From: Candidatus Dormiibacterota bacterium
Lineage (GTDB): Bacteria; Chloroflexota; Dormibacteria; Aeolococcales; Aeolococcaceae
Length of the DNA: 64,000 nt
Assembly: GCA_963709585.1 (NCBI GenBank)
Contig: CAVPXI010000004.1
Coordinates: forward strand, 1 to 64,000
Reading direction: 5' to 3'
A program made the translations under genes and the position numbers. Within the stretch, counting starts at the first letter, position 1. Each line of letters opens with the position of its first letter. Positions 1-7,309 of the stretch are shown here, one piece after another. The notes beneath the pieces are model-generated. The model did no database searches. It worked only from the letters and a program-made list of their open reading frames with translations, and was not told the origin of the DNA.

Positions 1-1500
1 ACGCGAGCAACGCTTGGATCGCAGTCCAGCCACCCGACCCGAACGCCGACACCGCCGACGTCGCCACCGAGCACGGTGTCACCACTATCGACGTGCCCAA
101 GAACGTAAAGCCTCCCGGACACGTACCGGAGCCGGTATCCGACTGAACCTCTCCGACGAGCCGCTGGGAACGTGGCCACCGTCGACACAATCGACGCCAT
201 CCAGTCAGTCGCCGGGACCAGCCCGTCCCCAGCCCGCTACACGTCGTTGACACCCCGAACGTGCACGTCAAGTCCTGTACATGCTTCTGATCGGGTATGA
301 AGAAGAATTGCAACCCACACAACGCCGCCGAAATCGGGTTGAGTAATGTAATCAGATCCCCGACCGGATCCGTCCACGACCACCCATTACAGTCACCCGC
401 GCCCGAGCCCGTACCTGTGCCATTGCCACCCGGCCCGCAGTTCGTCCCCGTACAACCTCCACCACCACCCGTAGAACCCCACCCAGGCGCGTGCGGAGCT
501 GGCGTTACACCCACACCGGGCGTCCCCGTCGCCGCACCCCAGCACAAAATCCCCTGGACACCATTCTTCGGCACCGCCGACTGTGTCGCGTCCGCGGCAC
601 TAAGCACCGGCTTAGTCCCCGCATCAAGCACCCCGAACAACGACGCGTACATATCGCCAAAATCCGCCGACCCCGAGGCCGTCCCACCCGCATCCTGCGC
701 GGTATATGGCGCAGCTTGATAAAGCCGCGTATAGCCCGTAAACCCCGACACGTCCGTTATCACGTCATCGTGCAACGCACCCACCGGAGATGGAGCACCG
801 AACACAAACCCGACACAAACCTCGTCTGCAGACGTCGTGCCCTCCGTGTCAGTCGTAAGCACCGTGCCCGTAACGTCACCCCCCTGCGTCACGAATCCCT
901 GATCGAAATATTGCGGAGCCCAGTCACCACTAGTCCCCACGACCGACCCACCCTCGAAAATCACATACGACGACCCGAATACCCACCACCACCCACCCCC
1001 TCGATCCACCCCACGTTTGTCGAATTCGTCTCCGAAATCACCTCAATATAGGAATTCGCCGGCGCCCCGTTATCACCCGGGATTGACTGCCAATCCTCCG
1101 AGAACCCAGTCGAGAACGAAAGCGTCGCACCGACCGGCACCGCCACCACGACAATCCCGATGTGATAGACGTCGGAAGGCGCATCAGCGAACGGCGGGCA
1201 CTGCGTACCGAACGGGCACGTTCCCCCCTTGCCCGAATCACCACCGAAAGTAAACGACGCCAGCGACGCATGGCCGAACTTCGGCAACGCCGATGGCAAC
1301 GGTGGGGTTACAACCGACAATCCCTGAATTACCAAGACGATCAACAGCAAAAGGCCAGCTACTTCCAAGGCACGCCGTGAAGTGTTACGCCACAGCCACG
1401 CGAAGAACGACGCCCAGCTCGCCCGGGACGACACACCAGCCCACCAAGTCCGAACGCTGCCCACACCCCGATGCAGGAGCCCAAGAGGAGACTTAGACAC
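1..1500 (-). CDS. pIII-like minor coat/adhesion protein (apparent frameshifts near 990 and 880; runs off window)
   Basis: ORF 961..1500 has an N-terminal hydrophobic segment; manual translation continues in shifted frames through a Gly/Cys-rich linker (GSTGGGGGCTGTNCGPGGNGTGTGSGAGDC) to the window edge; lies directly downstream of the major coat gene as in inoviruses. Confidence 0.6.
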
Positions 1501-1521
1501 GACCCCTGCACCGGAGAACGA

Positions 1522-1780
1522 TCAGCTCCCGGCCGCCCGCTTCATCCAACGACGAAGAAGAAGGATCCCGATTGCAAAGCCCGCGATCGTCACCACGAAG
1601 ACAGCCGCTTCCCCGAGGTAAGTCGTGAAAGTCGTTGTCGCCGAGGTGAAGCCCGAGTCCACCGGGTCGGCAAATGCAGCACCGCCCGCCAGAACCGAAG
1701 CCACCACTACCGTCGCCGCAACCCCGACCATCCGGCCGCGAGCCACCATCGCCGCGCACTGGACGCTTGACAAGGTTCAT
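1522..1780 (-). CDS. Inovirus major coat protein (pVIII-like)
   Basis: Strong RBS GAGGGGAGGTG before ATG 1780 (one apparent indel near 1750); signal peptide ending AAFA; 48-aa mature DPVDSGFTSATTTFTTYLGEAAVFVVTIAGFAIGILLLRRWMKRAAGS with acidic N-terminus, TM helix and basic C-terminus. Confidence 0.85.
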
Positions 1781-1804
1781 CTGTAATTCACCTCCCCTCA
1801 CGCC

Positions 1805-1918
1805 CTAGTCGGATGCGAACAGCCTGAGAACCAGGCCGCACGCTCCCCCAACGACAAAACCAAGCAGAACCGTCTTAATTGCTTCCAACACAATGTCAAC
1901 CGGGAAGTTCGCCGGCAT
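1805..1918 (-). CDS. 37-aa single-TM protein, pVII/pIX-like minor coat candidate
   Basis: MPANFPVDIVLEAIKTVLLGFVVGGACGLVLRLFASD immediately upstream of the major coat gene; GGGAG RBS-like motif. Confidence 0.6.
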   Translation of the reverse strand: MPANFPVDIVLEAIKTVLLGFVVGGACGLVLRLFASD

Positions 1919-2110
1919 CCGACTGCTCCCTCGGCCACGAGTGCCACACCTGCACGGTCTTCGGGTGATACACGACATGAGAGCCGATATGCCCGAACGG
2001 CCGATGACACTCCGCCACAAACCACACCTTCCCCCGCGCCGGCGAGTCTTCGACAACAGCGGCCCCTCCGCACCGCACACACGCGAGCAGTCGATCAACA
2101 CGTCACTCAA
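1896..2110 (-). CDS. Small Cys/His-containing phage hypothetical protein (probably frameshifted)
   Basis: Overlapping ORFs 1805..2110 and 1896..2078 (C-x3-C; C-x4-GHIGSH) fill the gap between neighbouring genes. Confidence 0.35.
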
Positions 2111-2423
2111 CCGACCTACGGCCCTGATGAATCAGCAGCGCCATACCAAGCAGCGGCACGAAGACCAGCAACGAACCAAGCGCGAGATCCGGGAGCACTT
2201 GCCCGTCGTATTCGCTCACAAATCCCTCCGTGTCCGAATCCGAGTTGTTGCAGTAGGTCGGTCCGGGGCCAGTCGTGCCAGTCACGGTGCAGGATGCTCC
2301 GCTGGCAGCTCCCGTAGCGAACGCCGCAACCGATCCGCACGACGCCACGAGCGCGCACAGTGCCACGGAACGCGACGGCATACCCCCAGAGAACGAGCAA
2401 CGCAGCAGAACCCACCCGGTCAC
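2103..2423 (-). CDS. Small phage membrane protein (signal-like N-terminus, Cys pair, C-terminal TM)
   Basis: GTGA overlap with upstream stop; ends LALGSLLVFVPLLGMALLIHQGRRSVE. Confidence 0.55.
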   Translation of the reverse strand: MTGWVLLRCSFSGGMPSRSVALCALVASCGSVAAFATGAASGASCTVTGTTGPGPTYCNNSDSDTEGFVSEYDGQVLPDLALGSLLVFVPLLGMALLIHQGRRSVE

Positions 2424-3193
2424 GTCCCCCCCGCTCGTTTCATCCACCGACGAAGCATCACGATCCCGATCGCCAGGAACCCAACCGCGAGAACCATCGC
2501 GAGCGCATCAACCAAATAGCCCGACGTGAGCCCCTCGACGGAGGAAAAACCAGCACCGACCGGATCTGGCGGATTCCAAGGCCAAGACGTTCCATTACAG
2601 AACCCCGCCGCTGCCGAGTACCCATTACCCGTCGCCTCCTGCGCCGCCAGATCGCCACCCGTCGCCGGGTACGACGTCCCACCGATCGCCGCCGTCGGAT
2701 CGAAATTGCCCGTGTCCCAGTTCGGCGGATTGGACCAGTCCGCACTACCGTCCGAGTACCACGTCGTCCCACCGTCGAACGATTCGAACAGCTCAAGCGA
2801 GTCCGTCGCGTGCGACCCGTCAGGCCCGTAGATCGTGCCCGACGCACCATTGAACGCGACATTGACGTCATCGCCAGCCGTCGCCACCACGAACGTCGTC
2901 ACCGACGATGCGCCCGAGTAGCCGTACGTCGGCACGCCATCCGCGCCGTATTCCACCCACTCGGCAACAAACTTGATCGACTGACCCGCCGTCGTGCCCG
3001 CACCCGACGCCGCCCCCTCCGTCGCCACCGGAGCAGCAGGCACTCCCGGATCCGTGCACGCCGCATACGGCGTATAGGCGCCACCACCACCGCGCACCAA
3101 CTCAACGCGCGGTCCCGACCACGCAACCCAGGCCAGCGCGACGACCACCACGACCGGACCACACCGAGCACCCCAGCGCTTCAACCGCTTCAC
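2420..3193 (-). CDS. Secreted-domain / major-coat fusion protein (extended pVIII paralog)
   Basis: Signal-peptide-like N-terminus, ~175-aa domain with Asp-box SFDGGTTW, C-terminal 48 aa align gaplessly with the mature coat (23/48 identical by hand count). Confidence 0.8.
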   Translation of the reverse strand: MKRLKRWGARCGPVVVVVALAWVAWSGPRVELVRGGGGAYTPYAACTDPGVPAAPVATEGAASGAGTTAGQSIKFVAEWVEYGADGVPTYGYSGASSVTTFVVATAGDDVNVAFNGASGTIYGPDGSHATDSLELFESFDGGTTWYSDGSADWSNPPNWDTGNFDPTAAIGGTSYPATGGDLAAQEATGNGYSAAAGFCNGTSWPWNPPDPVGAGFSSVEGLTSGYLVDALAMVLAVGFLAIGIVMLRRWMKRAGGT

Positions 3194-3735
3194 CGTGACA
3201 CCCCGTCCAGGGTGGACGATGGATCGCCAGGCGCAAGCCCTCGGCCTAACGACCCACCGTCAGCCCCACCGCCGCCTAAAGCCCGTTGGGGGGTAACGAC
3301 CCCAGGCGACACCTCGCTCAGCAGCCCGCACTGTCCGCAGGCCGCCAAGACGTGATCCCCGATTACTTGCGGAACGCCAAGAATCCCGCCAACACAGCGA
3401 GAACAAAGAGCGCGATCAGACCCAGCGCCAAGTCCTCTTGATGCGTCGATGACGGATCCTGCGTCGAAGCTATCCAACTGATGACCAACACGCGTACCCC
3501 CTACTTGAACCGTCGTATGTTGCTGCACCGCCAGTGTCGCCGCGAGCTGCGCGTTCGCTTCCGTAAGCGTCTTTATTTGCAGCTCCATCTTCTGACGAAC
3601 GTCGATCGCGCCTTGATAGCTGCGACGCCACTTTCGGCCGATCAGAAAACACACCGCCGCGAAGAACACGAGCGGAATAATGCCCGTCCACGACCTATGA
3701 GCTGCCGCAACCGCCAGGAAACCGCCCACCGCCAA
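3190..3735 (-). CDS. Phage membrane protein with coiled coil and CxxC...CxxC zinc ribbon
   Basis: N-terminal TM segments, heptad-like segment QKMELQIKTLTEANAQL, CSRC and CGQC motifs; GGGAGG RBS; stop overlaps next start. Confidence 0.6.
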   Translation of the reverse strand: MAVGGFLAVAAAHRSWTGIIPLVFFAAVCFLIGRKWRRSYQGAIDVRQKMELQIKTLTEANAQLAATLAVQQHTTVQVGGTRVGHQLDSFDAGSVIDASRGLGAGSDRALCSRCVGGILGVPQVIGDHVLAACGQCGLLSEVSPGVVTPQRALGGGGADGGSLGRGLAPGDPSSTLDGVSR

Positions 3736-3752
3736 CCGCCTCCCGCCTTGAA

Positions 3753-4001
3753 TTACTTACCTGAACAGCACCCCTGCCGCGCTACGTGATCGTCCCACGC
3801 GGGCCGAGCAGCGTGATTTGCAACGCGCACACGGCCCGGGCCGTAGAGCGGTATGTGGTTCCAGACCACAAGCACCGAGCCGGTTGACGACGAGAACACC
3901 TCACCGTCGATGAGTGCGTGACACTCGCGACAAGTCGCGTGAACCTTGTCGCCCACCTGAACCTCCGTCGCAGGGATCACGCGCTTGGGCGGCGAGGGCA
4001 T
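3753..4001 (-). CDS. Phage hypothetical protein (CxxC motif)
   Basis: 82-aa ORF within the co-directional cluster; AGAAGGTG upstream. Confidence 0.45.
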   Translation of the reverse strand: MPSPPKRVIPATEVQVGDKVHATCRECHALIDGEVFSSSTGSVLVVWNHIPLYGPGRVRVANHAARPAWDDHVARQGCCSGK

Positions 4002-4071
4002 CCGTCACCTTCTGGGCCCATACCCGCTCTTACCTGGTGACTCCCGACCCAAGCACGATCTACGAAGACCA

Positions 4072-4551
4072 TCACGCTTCGACATTCTCCGGCCCATAAA
4101 GAGTGGGCGAGTCGTAAGGATCGTCCCCGGCATCCACCTCACCCGGCCGCTCCGCTTCGCGACGCATGAACCCGGCAGGCGACTCCTCGTAACGCGAGCC
4201 CCGCATAATCCCATCGGACGTCACCGGCTCGACCGTGTGGACCGACTCCGCAACGAAGGTAGGAAATGCGCCCTTGTTCCAGGGACGAGCGTCCACGTCG
4301 ACGCCGACCGCGACGACCGTGCCCGACGCGATCTTTCTAAGTGAGTCACCGACCTGCGTCGGCTGCCCGGTCCGAGGATCGAAAGCCGTGAACTCGATAC
4401 GAGCTTCGGTGTCTTTCGACCACGCCTGGCGGAAATACTTGACAAGCAGAAATTGCCTGCCCTTGTCCTCTTTCGTTCCTACGAACGTCCCAATGACAAC
4501 CGGGCCGGTAAGACGGCCGGCGCGCTGACTGTGCCCATCTGGCACCTCCAC
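4072..4551 (-). CDS. Putative ssDNA-binding (OB-fold, pV-like) protein
   Basis: Beta-rich pattern (GTVVAVGVDVDARPW) with acidic tail; GGAGGTG RBS precedes ATG ~4539 in a neighbouring frame (probable indel); position ahead of the structural genes. Confidence 0.5.
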   Translation of the reverse strand: MEVPDGHSQRAGRLTGPVVIGTFVGTKEDKGRQFLLVKYFRQAWSKDTEARIEFTAFDPRTGQPTQVGDSLRKIASGTVVAVGVDVDARPWNKGAFPTFVAESVHTVEPVTSDGIMRGSRYEESPAGFMRREAERPGEVDAGDDPYDSPTLYGPENVEA

Positions 4552-4685
4552 AAGATCGCAGGGTCTGTAGCCCTGGGTGACCTGTCCGTCACCTGGGCGG
4601 GCACGCTACACGGACCCCGTGACATAGGCAAGCACCCAACGCCTTACTCCTTGGCCTGCCGCATCGTGCTGACCGCTCGCTTCCC

Positions 4686-4733
4686 GTTGTCAACCCCTAC
4701 GTCATGACCTCGCTGCGCTCGGGGGTTGACAAC
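4686..4733. repeat. Perfect 12-bp inverted repeat hairpin, candidate phage origin, packaging signal or operator
   Basis: GTTGTCAACCCC (4686-4697) / GGGGTTGACAAC (4722-4733) in the divergent intergenic region; internal palindrome GTCATGAC. Confidence 0.6.
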
Positions 4734-4850
4734 CGCTCACCGGCACCACCTCGCCGGCTGACGCCGGCAACGGCTCAGCACACATGCGACACATGCCAAA
4801 GAAGGCAGGGGCCTGCCCCGAATACGGGGCGACCGTGAGAGGAGCACACC

Positions 4851-5093
4851 ATGGGGAGCACCAAGACCGTCACCGAGGTTCTAACCGACCACAAGGCAGA
4901 GCTTGACGAGCTGTCCGAGCAGATCCGACAGGTGGCACGTGACCTCGGAGACTTAAGCGCCTGGTTGCATCGGGAATTCGAGACGATCGAAAACCGCTTG
5001 AGGTACAAGGTCAATCACGGCGAGCTGCGTCGCATTATCAGCGCGGCGTGGGAAGCGAACAACAGCGAAGCCGACTCGAAGGTCGGAGGCTAA
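4851..5093 (+). CDS. Small coiled-coil hypothetical protein
   Basis: GAGGAG RBS, 80-aa helical ORF, TAATG overlap with next ORF. Confidence 0.6.
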   Translation: MGSTKTVTEVLTDHKAELDELSEQIRQVARDLGDLSAWLHREFETIENRLRYKVNHGELRRIISAAWEANNSEADSKVGG

Positions 5094-5289
5094 TGGCACC
5101 CGACCGACTGGCACTCGACCTACCGGCCGGTGATCTCACGACCACCATTCGCCGGCTCGAAGCACTCATCGCCCTCGCGGCGACGTGGGGCAAGACCCCA
5201 ACAAAGCGCACATCTACTACGACGGGTCGATTTGGTCCGTCACCTACGACAAGGAGACCACCAATGTGCTTGGCTCATCGTATTGCTGA
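5093..5289 (+). CDS. Small hypothetical protein (probable frameshift near 5200)
   Basis: GGAGG RBS and TAATG coupling; shifted frame reads NKAHIYYDGSIWSVTYDKETTNVLGSSYC then stop. Confidence 0.35.
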
Positions 5290-5299
5290 GAAGCTCGGG

Positions 5300-5508
5300 G
5301 CCCAATTCCTGGATGATGCCGCCCCTCATAACGGAATGATGTCACCCCCAAATTCCGAGATGATCGCGCCCCCCATCGGAATGATCCCGCCCGGTCGTGG
5401 CGCAACGACCGGCGCCGCCGTTGGCTTGATCAGGTCGCCCCTGGCAACCCCAAAGGAGGATGAGATGCCAGCGGAGCGGATTGGGATGCGCGATGCGCGC
5501 GAGAGATC
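5300..5508 (+). mobile_element. istA: IS21-family left end with truncated istA start (remnant)
   Basis: Four ~22-24-bp-spaced repeats of ATGAT-N-(G/A)CCC type, AAGGAGGA RBS, and ATG 5465 encoding MPAERIGMRDARE, recognised as an IstA N-terminus, broken at GATC 5505. Confidence 0.65.
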
Positions 5509-5637
5509 GCCAGCAGCAGCGCGTGCTCGCGGGTGTGGTCGGTGTGCGGGGCGGTCGGGTGGATCGCCGTGGTCGGCCGTCAGTATCAACAGGTCGTCGT
5601 CGCCCAGCAGCGTGAGCCACTCCCCGCCCGATCGATC
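5505..5637 (-). pseudogene. deoB: Phosphopentomutase C-terminal fragment
   Basis: Minus strand reads EWLTLLGDDDLLILTADHG..PT..HTDHTREHALLLA, matching the DeoB motif TADHGNDPT...TDHTRE; bounded by GATC and GATCGATC. Confidence 0.6.
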
Positions 5638-5915
5638 AAAGCATCGTGGAAGTTGTTACCTGGACATCGTGACGGTGGCCGTGAGCCTGATCGGTCTCGA
5701 CAAGGTAAGGAAGGATCAGGGCCCGATTCGAGGGCTGGAAAAGCAAGAAGGCGGTCAATCCGAGGCCACCACGACCGTCAAGCCACATCAGCCTCAGTAC
5801 CAACACCCACAAACAGGTAACAACCTCCATGCCACCACCATGCCTCCACCGCTCAGCATATACTCGTACCTCAAAGTGTAGCCGTCAGCGTGCCGATGAC
5901 CATATGCAGCTAAGG

Positions 5916-6041
5916 GGAGGGGATGGCATTGACGGAGGCGGGCCGTCTCGCGGTCGGGGCTACCCCCGCCGGCGAGAGCGAGGGGCGGAACGGCGAAGGC
6001 GTTCCGACCCCGTGCCCGCGGCACTCGATGCCGTCCCCTCC
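5916..6041 (+). ncRNA. 126-nt structured element (17-bp closing stem plus three-way junction); unknown ncRNA or MITE-like element
   Basis: GGAGGGGATGGCATTGA pairs with TCGATGCCGTCCCCTCC using two G-U wobbles on the + strand; inner stems GCGGGC/GCCCGC, TCTCGC/GCGAGA, CGGGG/CCCCG, GGGGCGGAACG/CGTTCCGACCCC. Confidence 0.45.
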
Positions 6042-6046
6042 GACCC

Positions 6047-6343
6047 TCACAGGGCGTCGAGCAGTTTCTGGCGGAGGACCTCGAGCTTCTCGAAGTCGTC
6101 GACCGACGGACGGGTCGTCGCCTTGTTGGGGAATTTGAGGTGCTGGACGGCTTCCGAGAGGATCCGCAGCTCGTCGTCGGTCAGACGGACCGAGCGCATG
6201 TGCGGCGCCGGGGCGGTCGGAACCGGATGCACCGCGTCGTCGTTGACGCCGACCGACAGCGGGGCGTCGAGCTGTTCAGGTTCCGCGGACCGGAAGAGCT
6301 CGTCGCTGCCGCGCAGCTGTGCGCGGCGGAATCCGCGCATCAC
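6047..6343 (-). CDS. Small ParA-partner hypothetical protein
   Basis: Overlaps parA stop; N-terminal RRAQLRGSDELFR motif; helical C-terminus. Confidence 0.7.
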   Translation of the reverse strand: MMRGFRRAQLRGSDELFRSAEPEQLDAPLSVGVNDDAVHPVPTAPAPHMRSVRLTDDELRILSEAVQHLKFPNKATTRPSVDDFEKLEVLRQKLLDAL

Positions 6344-7182
6344 CGTCGTGCCGCGCGCACCCGCTCGCGTGGACGTTCCGCGCTCCCGGAGACCTCGATG
6401 GTGCCGTCGTCACCGCGATCCTGAGCGATGACGGCCTTGGCCAGTGCCCGGTAGGAGCGAGCCCCAGGCGAGTTCGGAGCGTATTCGAGGATCGACTGGC
6501 CCGCCAGCGGGGTCTCGGCGAATCTGATCGAGGAGTTGACGGTGATCGGGAAGACCAGGTCGGGATACGCGCTCTTGACCAGATCGAGCACCTCCTGGCT
6601 GTGCAGGGTGCGCGACTTGTACAGCGTCGGCAGGATTCCGGCAACCCGCAGGTGGCTGTTGAGCTTGGCGCGCACGCGATCGATGGTGCGCTGCAGCTGT
6701 TGCATCCCCTTCATGCCGAAGTACTCGCACTGCAGTGGGATGATCACGTCCGTCGAGGCGACCAGCGCGTTGATGCAGAGCAAGCCGAGCGATGGTGGGC
6801 AATCGATGACCACGTAGTCGTAGCGACCCTCGATCGGCTCGAGCTTCTCCTTGAGGATCGACTCGCGGCCGAACTCGGTGACCAGTTGCAGCTCGGCTCC
6901 GCTGAGGTCGATGTTCGCCGGGATGAAGTCGAGCCCCATGCTCTCGGACGTGAGCAAGACGTCGCCGGTGTTGACGCGGTGGTCTGTGAGCAGGTCGTAG
7001 ATAGTCCGCTCCAGCTCGTCGGGCCGGCGGCACCCCATGTTGATGGTGAGGTGACCCTGGGGATCGAGGTCGATGGCGAGCACTCGCAGCCCCGCTTCCG
7101 CGATGGCTGCCGCGAGGTTGACTGCGGTCGTGGTCTTGCCCACACCGCCCTTCTGGTTCGCGACCGAAATGATCCGCGTCAT
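6340..7182 (-). CDS. parA: ParA/Soj family ATPase
   Basis: ANQKGGVGKTTT deviant Walker A, DLDPQG, IDCPPSLG. Confidence 0.95.
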   Translation of the reverse strand: MTRIISVANQKGGVGKTTTAVNLAAAIAEAGLRVLAIDLDPQGHLTINMGCRRPDELERTIYDLLTDHRVNTGDVLLTSESMGLDFIPANIDLSGAELQLVTEFGRESILKEKLEPIEGRYDYVVIDCPPSLGLLCINALVASTDVIIPLQCEYFGMKGMQQLQRTIDRVRAKLNSHLRVAGILPTLYKSRTLHSQEVLDLVKSAYPDLVFPITVNSSIRFAETPLAGQSILEYAPNSPGARSYRALAKAVIAQDRGDDGTIEVSGSAERPRERVRAARR

Positions 7183-7309
7183 GGCCGGCGCGGTGTCAAG
7201 AGATCGCAAAGGGAACAGACGCGCCTCACTGAGCAGGTATCATAGCGAACCCGATTGCCTCTCTCGGCCGTGGGTCGGGAGCAAGTGCACTTGCAGCGGT
7301 CATTGACCC

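Follow-up and report, generated by a model that had tools for sequence, protein, structure and literature searches.

The 64,000-nucleotide stretch analysed here (the window: positions 1-64000, that is, the first 64 kb, of contig C4 in a metagenome-assembled genome of 24 contigs, 88.8% complete) opens, as judged from gene order and homology, within a filamentous phage (inovirus) that has integrated into the genome of an uncultured soil bacterium and whose structural half is retained. Two forms of gene VIII, the gene for the major coat protein pVIII, lie on the minus strand of this element: a plain one at 1522..1773 and, at 2420..3193, an extended paralog in which a passenger region stands between the leader and a complete coat unit. 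We propose, at about even chances, that the element belongs to a lineage with natural "type 88" mosaic coats, in which plain and extended pVIII would share one filament. The sheaths of filamentous phages have been described as consisting of one small protein, with functional variety usually placed at the tips, and a natural second sheath protein bearing a folded domain would change this picture. To our knowledge, no characterised pVIII carries a folded N-terminal domain. The first-pass annotation of the window had stated that it knew of no described natural example; a full-text literature search, covering listings and abstracts, likewise brought to light neither a natural extended gene VIII nor an inovirus with two major coat genes, and the natural two-gene layout with an extended pVIII seems to be undescribed. 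A large inovirus survey screened structural proteins of 30-90 residues after leader removal (PMC6813254), and because of this size filter such catalogues would miss fusions of this kind as coat proteins.

The plain gene encodes a major coat precursor (precoat) of 83 residues when read from the TTG at 1773, where the frame opens, or of 75 residues from the in-frame ATG at 1749; its leader ends in AFA and its mature part comprises 48 residues. It had been called a pVIII major coat protein from its letters, and profile comparison bore out this identification, with an Ff-type protein as the result. The profile built from six coat units (A2) matched, end to end, the M13 procoat (G8P) in the PDB with an expectation value (E) of 4.2e-7, mature M13 pVIII at 1.2e-5 and fd pVIII at 1.9e-5. 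The same M13 and fd chains were matched by a profile of the three extended units only (A4; E 1.1e-4 to 3.3e-4), which spans residues 2-49 of the 50 of M13. The plain coat itself scored 24.1 bits (E 3.9e-5; curated cut-off 24.6) against Pfam PF19199 (Phage_coatGP8) and matched the major-coat family phrog_1646 at E 2e-4, and the plain coat of a complete relative described below, L007, reached 23.6 bits against the same Pfam cut-off. All seven coat units compared have 48 residues, of which 3-4 among the first 21 are acidic and 3-4 among the last 12 basic, and their leaders, as read by hand, end in AFA, ASA, ALA, SYA or AWA. The cleaved leader, the mature helix of about 50 residues, the acidic outer end, the hydrophobic middle and the basic DNA-binding tail are shared with the pVIII of the Ff phages (M13, f1, fd), and on these matches the coat family is truly of the Ff type.

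The start of the plain gene deserves a separate remark. The limit of 1780 given in the first-pass annotation could not be kept, as the ATG at that position is out of frame and an in-frame TGA lies at 1779..1777. A strong GGGGAGG site upstream of the gene stands 10 nucleotides from this out-of-frame ATG (1780) and 17 from the TTG (1773). The coat gene either has an unusual start or contains a one-base assembly error in its leader; leader and mature part are intact in both cases.

The extended gene encodes 257 residues, which divide into a leader (about residues 1-27), the passenger (about 28-209) and a pVIII unit (210-257), and its GTG start overlaps the stop codon of the upstream gene for a 181-residue protein (GTGA). 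The coat unit occupies 48 codons at 2423..2566 (minus strand; DPVGAGF...RRWMKRAGGT). In a BLASTP comparison, residues 36-83 of the precoat aligned with residues 210-257 of the fusion with 23/48 identities, 32/48 positives and no gaps (E 2e-12), from the DPV that follows the AFA signal-peptidase motif to both C-termini, RRWMKRA included; the gap-free match with a retained RRWMKR tail, which had been counted by hand, was thereby reproduced. The passenger region (2567..3112, minus strand) has a beta-rich core of about 130 residues with one Asp-box. The other features first noticed in this region also stood: SFDGGTTW, at fusion residues 138-145, fits the pattern S-x-D-x-G-x-T-W, the two distant cysteines, C46 and C199, both follow the leader, and the domain estimated at about 175 residues corresponds to some 180 residues between the hydrophobic N-terminal leader and the coat unit. 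The leader is basic and hydrophobic, of the Sec type, and no second signal peptide was found between passenger and coat unit.

As suggested by these features, the passenger would be a folded, disulfide-containing, beta-rich region of about 180 residues. It had no match in Pfam, not even to PF02012 (BNR/Asp-box) at E 10, and none in PHROGs. The Asp-box occurs once per domain in all three domain copies available (with Y for W in one), and a single copy per domain does not suggest a propeller, in which the BNR/Asp-box family usually has several. AlphaFold2 models of the fusion had a mean predicted local distance difference test score (pLDDT) of 43.3 from the single sequence and 40.1 from a two-row alignment (A3); confidence was confined to the leader and the coat helix, and the passenger, at a pLDDT of about 30, was given beta strands only. 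A phmmer comparison of the passenger's one relative, P0002, with PDB sequences yielded only noise (E 1.5). Descent of the passenger from the pIII-like protein was considered and rejected: BLASTP and a passenger profile, run against the pIII-like proteins of both the window element and L007, gave short stretches with a best E of 0.047-0.33. A string of the form CNG-x-SW...DPVG is present both at the fusion junction (2599-2555, minus strand) and in the linker of the pIII-like protein (361-242, minus strand); at E 0.33-0.86 the resemblance is not significant, and it could mark an old recombination point.

A search of the 257-residue protein against 1.84 billion representative proteins returned five sequences at E <=0.001: the protein itself, P0002, and the precoats P0004, P0005 and P0006. 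P0002 is the sole relative of the passenger in this collection. It has 408 residues, comes from a separate assembly, where it lies on a 325-kb contig, and consists of a leader with ASWA at its end, a tandem pair of passenger domains and a coat unit, ADPVDAGF...RRWMKRAGSV. The two repeats, A and B, share 43% identity (E 8e-13), the window passenger and repeat A 31% over 134 residues (E 9e-8), and the core of the window passenger is homologous to both repeats.

By way of P0004, one metagenome contig of 7030 nucleotides (L007) was found, and since it has a 123-nucleotide terminal repeat, it is a complete circle of 6,907 nucleotides. It encodes a Zot/pI assembly ATPase (24.0 bits; cut-off 20.3), a rolling-circle replication protein, Rep, of the REP_ORF2-G2P family (33.3 bits; cut-off 27.8) and a pIII-like protein of 525 residues with a weak PKD match. 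Its plain coat gene (5174..5458) is adjacent to an extended one (5510..5854, encoding P0004), in which the mature part starts with 13 extra residues that include a Cys-x5-Cys motif and continues with the coat unit; a stretch of about 24 nucleotides containing the ribosome-binding site is common to the front of both genes. Like the window fusion, P0004 had no Pfam match. The window coat is homologous to both coat genes of L007 (best E 9e-14). The type-88 arrangement that had been read from the window is accordingly found in both elements, each with one plain and one extended gene VIII, and the passengers carried on the one coat scaffold range from a loop (13 residues) through one domain (about 180) to two domains (about 325).

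The lineage is very rare in the databases searched. L007 was the sole yield of the contig scans, from the second metagenome scan; scans of the genome, viral and first metagenome contig sets revealed no further locus. Among 116 other genomes of the host family the fusion had no convincing match (three short ones at E 0.006-0.008, two of them with stop codons), the coat profile had none in 400 other genomes sampled from the phylum, and the pI of L007 had none in 161 genomes of the order. GenBank phages contained no match to the fusion or to the L007 pI; for the L007 Rep they contained one distant match, MW202783.1, at 30% identity.

The extended coat units bear the marks of constraint. In L007 the plain and extended units are identical at 43/48 residues and at 79% of the DNA, with 22.3 synonymous differences over 41 sites and 7.7 non-synonymous ones over 103 sites. 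The synonymous divergence (dS) of 0.97 against a non-synonymous divergence (dN) of 0.078, a dN/dS of about 0.08, indicates that the pair is old and that the two copies have been kept very close to a single protein sequence. The four plain units have 17 invariant positions, of which 15 are retained in the window fusion and 14 and 17 in the other extended units; the changes are from I to V or T and from A to G. The charge pattern of the extended units is that of the plain ones, with 3-4 acidic N-terminal and 3-4 basic C-terminal residues. The coat units of the window fusion and P0002 are each other's nearest relatives (33/48 identical, 69%), which points to the fusion being one conserved gene. 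Between these two large fusions the coat unit is 69% identical and the passenger 31%, and over the exposed first 20 residues of the coat unit 14/20 are identical by hand count.

On this evidence a mosaic coat might arise as follows. Both proteins would be inserted in the cytoplasmic membrane like procoat, with the N-terminus outside and the basic tail inside, and the leader would be removed after insertion. From subunits of both kinds, the complex of the assembly ATPase would next build the helical sheath around the single-stranded DNA; the extended protein could be taken in along with the plain one because its coat unit retains the residues for packing, the acidic segment at the outer end and the DNA-binding tail with its four charges. 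The conservation of this unit is what suggests that the fusion enters the virion. The product would be a mosaic filament, composed mostly of plain subunits, with scattered ones exposing the passenger on the shaft; the plain copy would be needed because, as we propose, the sheath could not accommodate a bulky extension at the N-terminus of all its subunits. From its Asp-box, its disulfide content and its secretion, we guess that the passenger's most likely target is a surface polymer, either of the host or of its surroundings, such as a matrix.

No Omp85, secretin or WhiB gene was found in the host genome (88.8% complete), whose G+C content is 70%; this points to a high-GC lineage that has a single membrane and does not belong to the typical actinobacteria. 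The missing detection of Omp85 and secretin genes sets this system apart from Ff, and a single-membrane host would, as a suggestion only, have no secretin pore to limit passenger size. Beyond the coat of this one element, we consider it possible, though somewhat less than an even prospect, that an Ff-related lineage has evolved modular display, in which the second gene VIII serves as a scaffold for passengers along the shaft, from a 13-residue disulfide loop to two folded domains in tandem. If this were true, the filament would be a multivalent adhesin and would open up a new way of recognising hosts, of adhering or of building biofilm matrix. It would also show a natural solution for high-load pVIII display, with coat and leader sequences evolved to tolerate large passengers, which engineered pVIII display handles poorly.

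Engineered type 88 phages carry a wild-type and an N-terminally extended gene VIII on one phage genome. In M13, additions longer than about 5-8 residues are tolerated only in hybrid virions that also contain wild-type pVIII; such hybrids bear about 1-300 copies and can take passengers above 50 kDa (PMC4523942). The natural elements resemble the type 88 and 8+8 designs in having both gene VIII forms on one genome and the passenger at the mature N-terminus, and the 13-residue Cys-x5-Cys loop of L007 resembles a disulfide-constrained peptide insert. They differ from them in being natural and old (dS of about 1 between the L007 copies) and in the use of two different leaders; moreover, the passengers here include one or two copies of an orphan domain, and the mosaic virion is deduced from the genes. 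With the pIII of Ff the fusion shares a leader, one or more outer domains, a short linker and a C-terminal membrane anchor, but its anchor is a whole pVIII unit instead of the pIII C-domain. Since a separate pIII-like gene is present in both the window element and L007, the fusion is not the sole candidate for an adsorption protein. Decoration proteins of tailed phages, such as T4 Hoc, are separate proteins that bind the finished capsid and mediate weak adhesion; both systems have in common the principle that a capsid lattice is furnished with outer domains which are not essential, whereas the domain described here is genetically joined to the lattice subunit.

A number of observations weigh against a mosaic coat. 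The placement of either protein in particles is a prediction from conservation of sequence. The plain coat of the window falls just under the curated PF19199 cut-off, the fused unit is not recognised by Pfam, and the fusion leader lacks a textbook A-x-A cleavage site (by hand it was read as AWS followed by G). The window's plain and fused units are only 48% identical, the plain unit being the most divergent of the seven (at most 25/48 identities to any other), and the lattice compatibility of these two units is assumed. A search among short proteins for the plain coat of the P0002 element found only the window's own plain coat. Neither Zot nor an L007-like pI or Rep was found anywhere in the host genome, and the prophage, cut at the contig end and lacking Zot and Rep in the assembly, may be defective. 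Folded proteins on hybrid pVIII of M13 are typically present at far less than one copy per virion (PMC4523942), so that dense decoration would not be expected without special adaptation.

The same evidence bears on two other placements of the fusion protein. It might be a minor coat protein restricted to the tip, of which a few copies, like pVII/pIX or pIII of the Ff phages, dock by their pVIII-derived unit into just one end of the sheath, and in which the passenger acts as a second receptor-binding or cap module. The position of its gene, upstream of the pIX-like and coat genes, where Ff phages keep genes VII and IX, is in keeping with this, and the assembly site may let a bulky domain through only at an end. 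Nothing in the sequence, however, would confine a full pVIII unit to an end, and the DNA-binding tail RRWMKR, which an end protein need not keep, is kept exactly. The minor-coat slots are already filled by the large pIII-like protein and several small membrane proteins, and the two L007 copies, which differ by 5/48 residues and the 13-residue loop, give no reason to expect that one of them is placed specifically at an end. In engineered phages, pVIII fusions are found along the shaft. We regard a tip protein as unlikely.

We also give a low probability to the fusion acting outside the virion, with the coat unit as a mere membrane anchor, or acting as an assembly-site decoy, and the passenger at work on the cell surface, be it in superinfection exclusion by receptor masking, as an adhesin of lysogenic conversion or in regulating extrusion. 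Surface proteins by which prophages block reinfection are common, and the fusion gene is intact although the prophage may be defective, both of which would suit such a role. A mere anchor is made unlikely by the conserved exposed N-terminal segment of the coat unit, which it would not need; nor would it need the amphipathic character of this segment, the exact mature N-terminus or the tail. Masking a receptor would be beyond the small 13-residue version in L007, which is nevertheless kept at 43/48 identity with a dN/dS of about 0.08.

It is very improbable, finally, that the fusion is an artefact or a decaying gene, that is, a chimeric assembly or a pseudogene left by a deletion that joined a passenger gene to a second coat gene. 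The fragmented, metagenome-derived nature of the genome would allow for this, and no read or contig spans the junction: the public DNA runs that hold the stretch, labelled soil metagenome, gave short contigs at a depth of 1-6, none of which bridges 2566/2567, and no RNA run was listed among them. A chimera is nevertheless unlikely because P0002, on its 325-kb contig in an independent assembly, has the same architecture with the same junction logic, because the two halves of the gene agree in codon composition, and because a second signal peptide is missing between them. Over 257 codons the frame is free of stops, and its codon composition is that of the element from end to end (G+C at third codon positions, GC3, of 0.76 and 0.69 in the two halves vs 0.84-0.89 in host genes), and the better conservation of the coat unit than of the passenger between the two large fusions likewise speaks against decay. 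A mosaic coat, which is plausible and gains strength from the two further examples and from the signal of selection, remains the interpretation that we prefer.

The element itself was delimited by G+C content, GC skew and GC3 as foreign, prophage-like DNA at 1..6046, with genes on the minus strand. G+C content is 0.61-0.64 in the first ~6 kb vs ~0.70 beyond, GC skew is strongly negative in the window up to ~4500, and GC3 is 0.62-0.77 in the element genes vs 0.84-0.89 in the neighbouring host genes for ParA, a GH15 protein and ArgC. The right border of the prophage lies somewhere in ~5900-6046, and its left part is lost at the contig start. The GC skew of the element was not seen on any other contig of the host genome, no tRNA gene was found in the window, and scans of the window for promoters and terminators stayed at chance level. 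All plausible genes of the first ~6 kb are on the minus strand and encode, in order of transcription, proteins of 159, 82, 181, 257 (the fusion), 92, 37, 83 (the precoat), 179 and at least 336 (pIII-like) residues. Five of these, the 159-residue, 181-residue, 37-residue, coat and pIII-like genes, have homologs in the same order in L007, and the collinearity with this complete relative, which has both Zot and Rep, is the basis on which the window element is identified as an inovirus.

At the upstream end of this series, the 159-residue protein (4072..4551, minus strand) shares 33% identity over 96 residues with a 108-residue protein of L007 (E 1.9e-9) and had no Pfam match; standing in the slot of gene V, it is by its position a candidate single-stranded-DNA-binding protein. 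It is followed on the minus strand by the genes for an 82-residue protein (3753..4001) and for a 181-residue membrane protein with a coiled coil (3190..3735), which is translationally coupled to the fusion gene and is 34% identical over 53 residues to a 193-residue protein of L007 (E 3e-6). Between the fusion and the pIX-like gene lies the gene for a 92-residue protein (2103..2381, minus strand) with a signal peptide or a lipobox-like VASC, two further cysteines after it, a short outer part and a C-terminal membrane anchor. This protein matched no family and has no counterpart in L007; it is a candidate for another minor coat protein or for a protein of the surface.

Where the Ff phages have gene IX, immediately upstream of the coat gene, a gene with the ribosome-binding site GAGGGAG encodes a hydrophobic protein of 37 residues (1805..1918, minus strand), which is 42% identical over 33 residues to the product of L007 4778..4876 (E 9e-6). 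A 179-residue membrane protein (961..1500, minus strand), encoded between the coat and pIII-like genes, is the positional counterpart of a 152-residue open reading frame of L007, with no significant similarity to L007. The last gene of the series, cut by the contig start, encodes the N-terminal 336 residues of a Gly/Thr-rich pIII-like protein (2..1009, minus strand), which shares 47.5% identity over 40 residues with the 525-residue pIII-like protein of L007 (E 3e-8).

Upstream of the 159-residue gene, about 1.5 kb (4552-6046) has element-like composition and no recognisable Rep, integrase or repressor gene; its sole gene-like open reading frame, on the plus strand at 4851..5093, encodes an 80-residue coiled-coil protein. 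Genes for a ParA-type ATPase (AAA_31, E 1e-62) and a 98-residue partner, with host-like codon composition, adjoin the prophage border at 6047-7209 on the minus strand.

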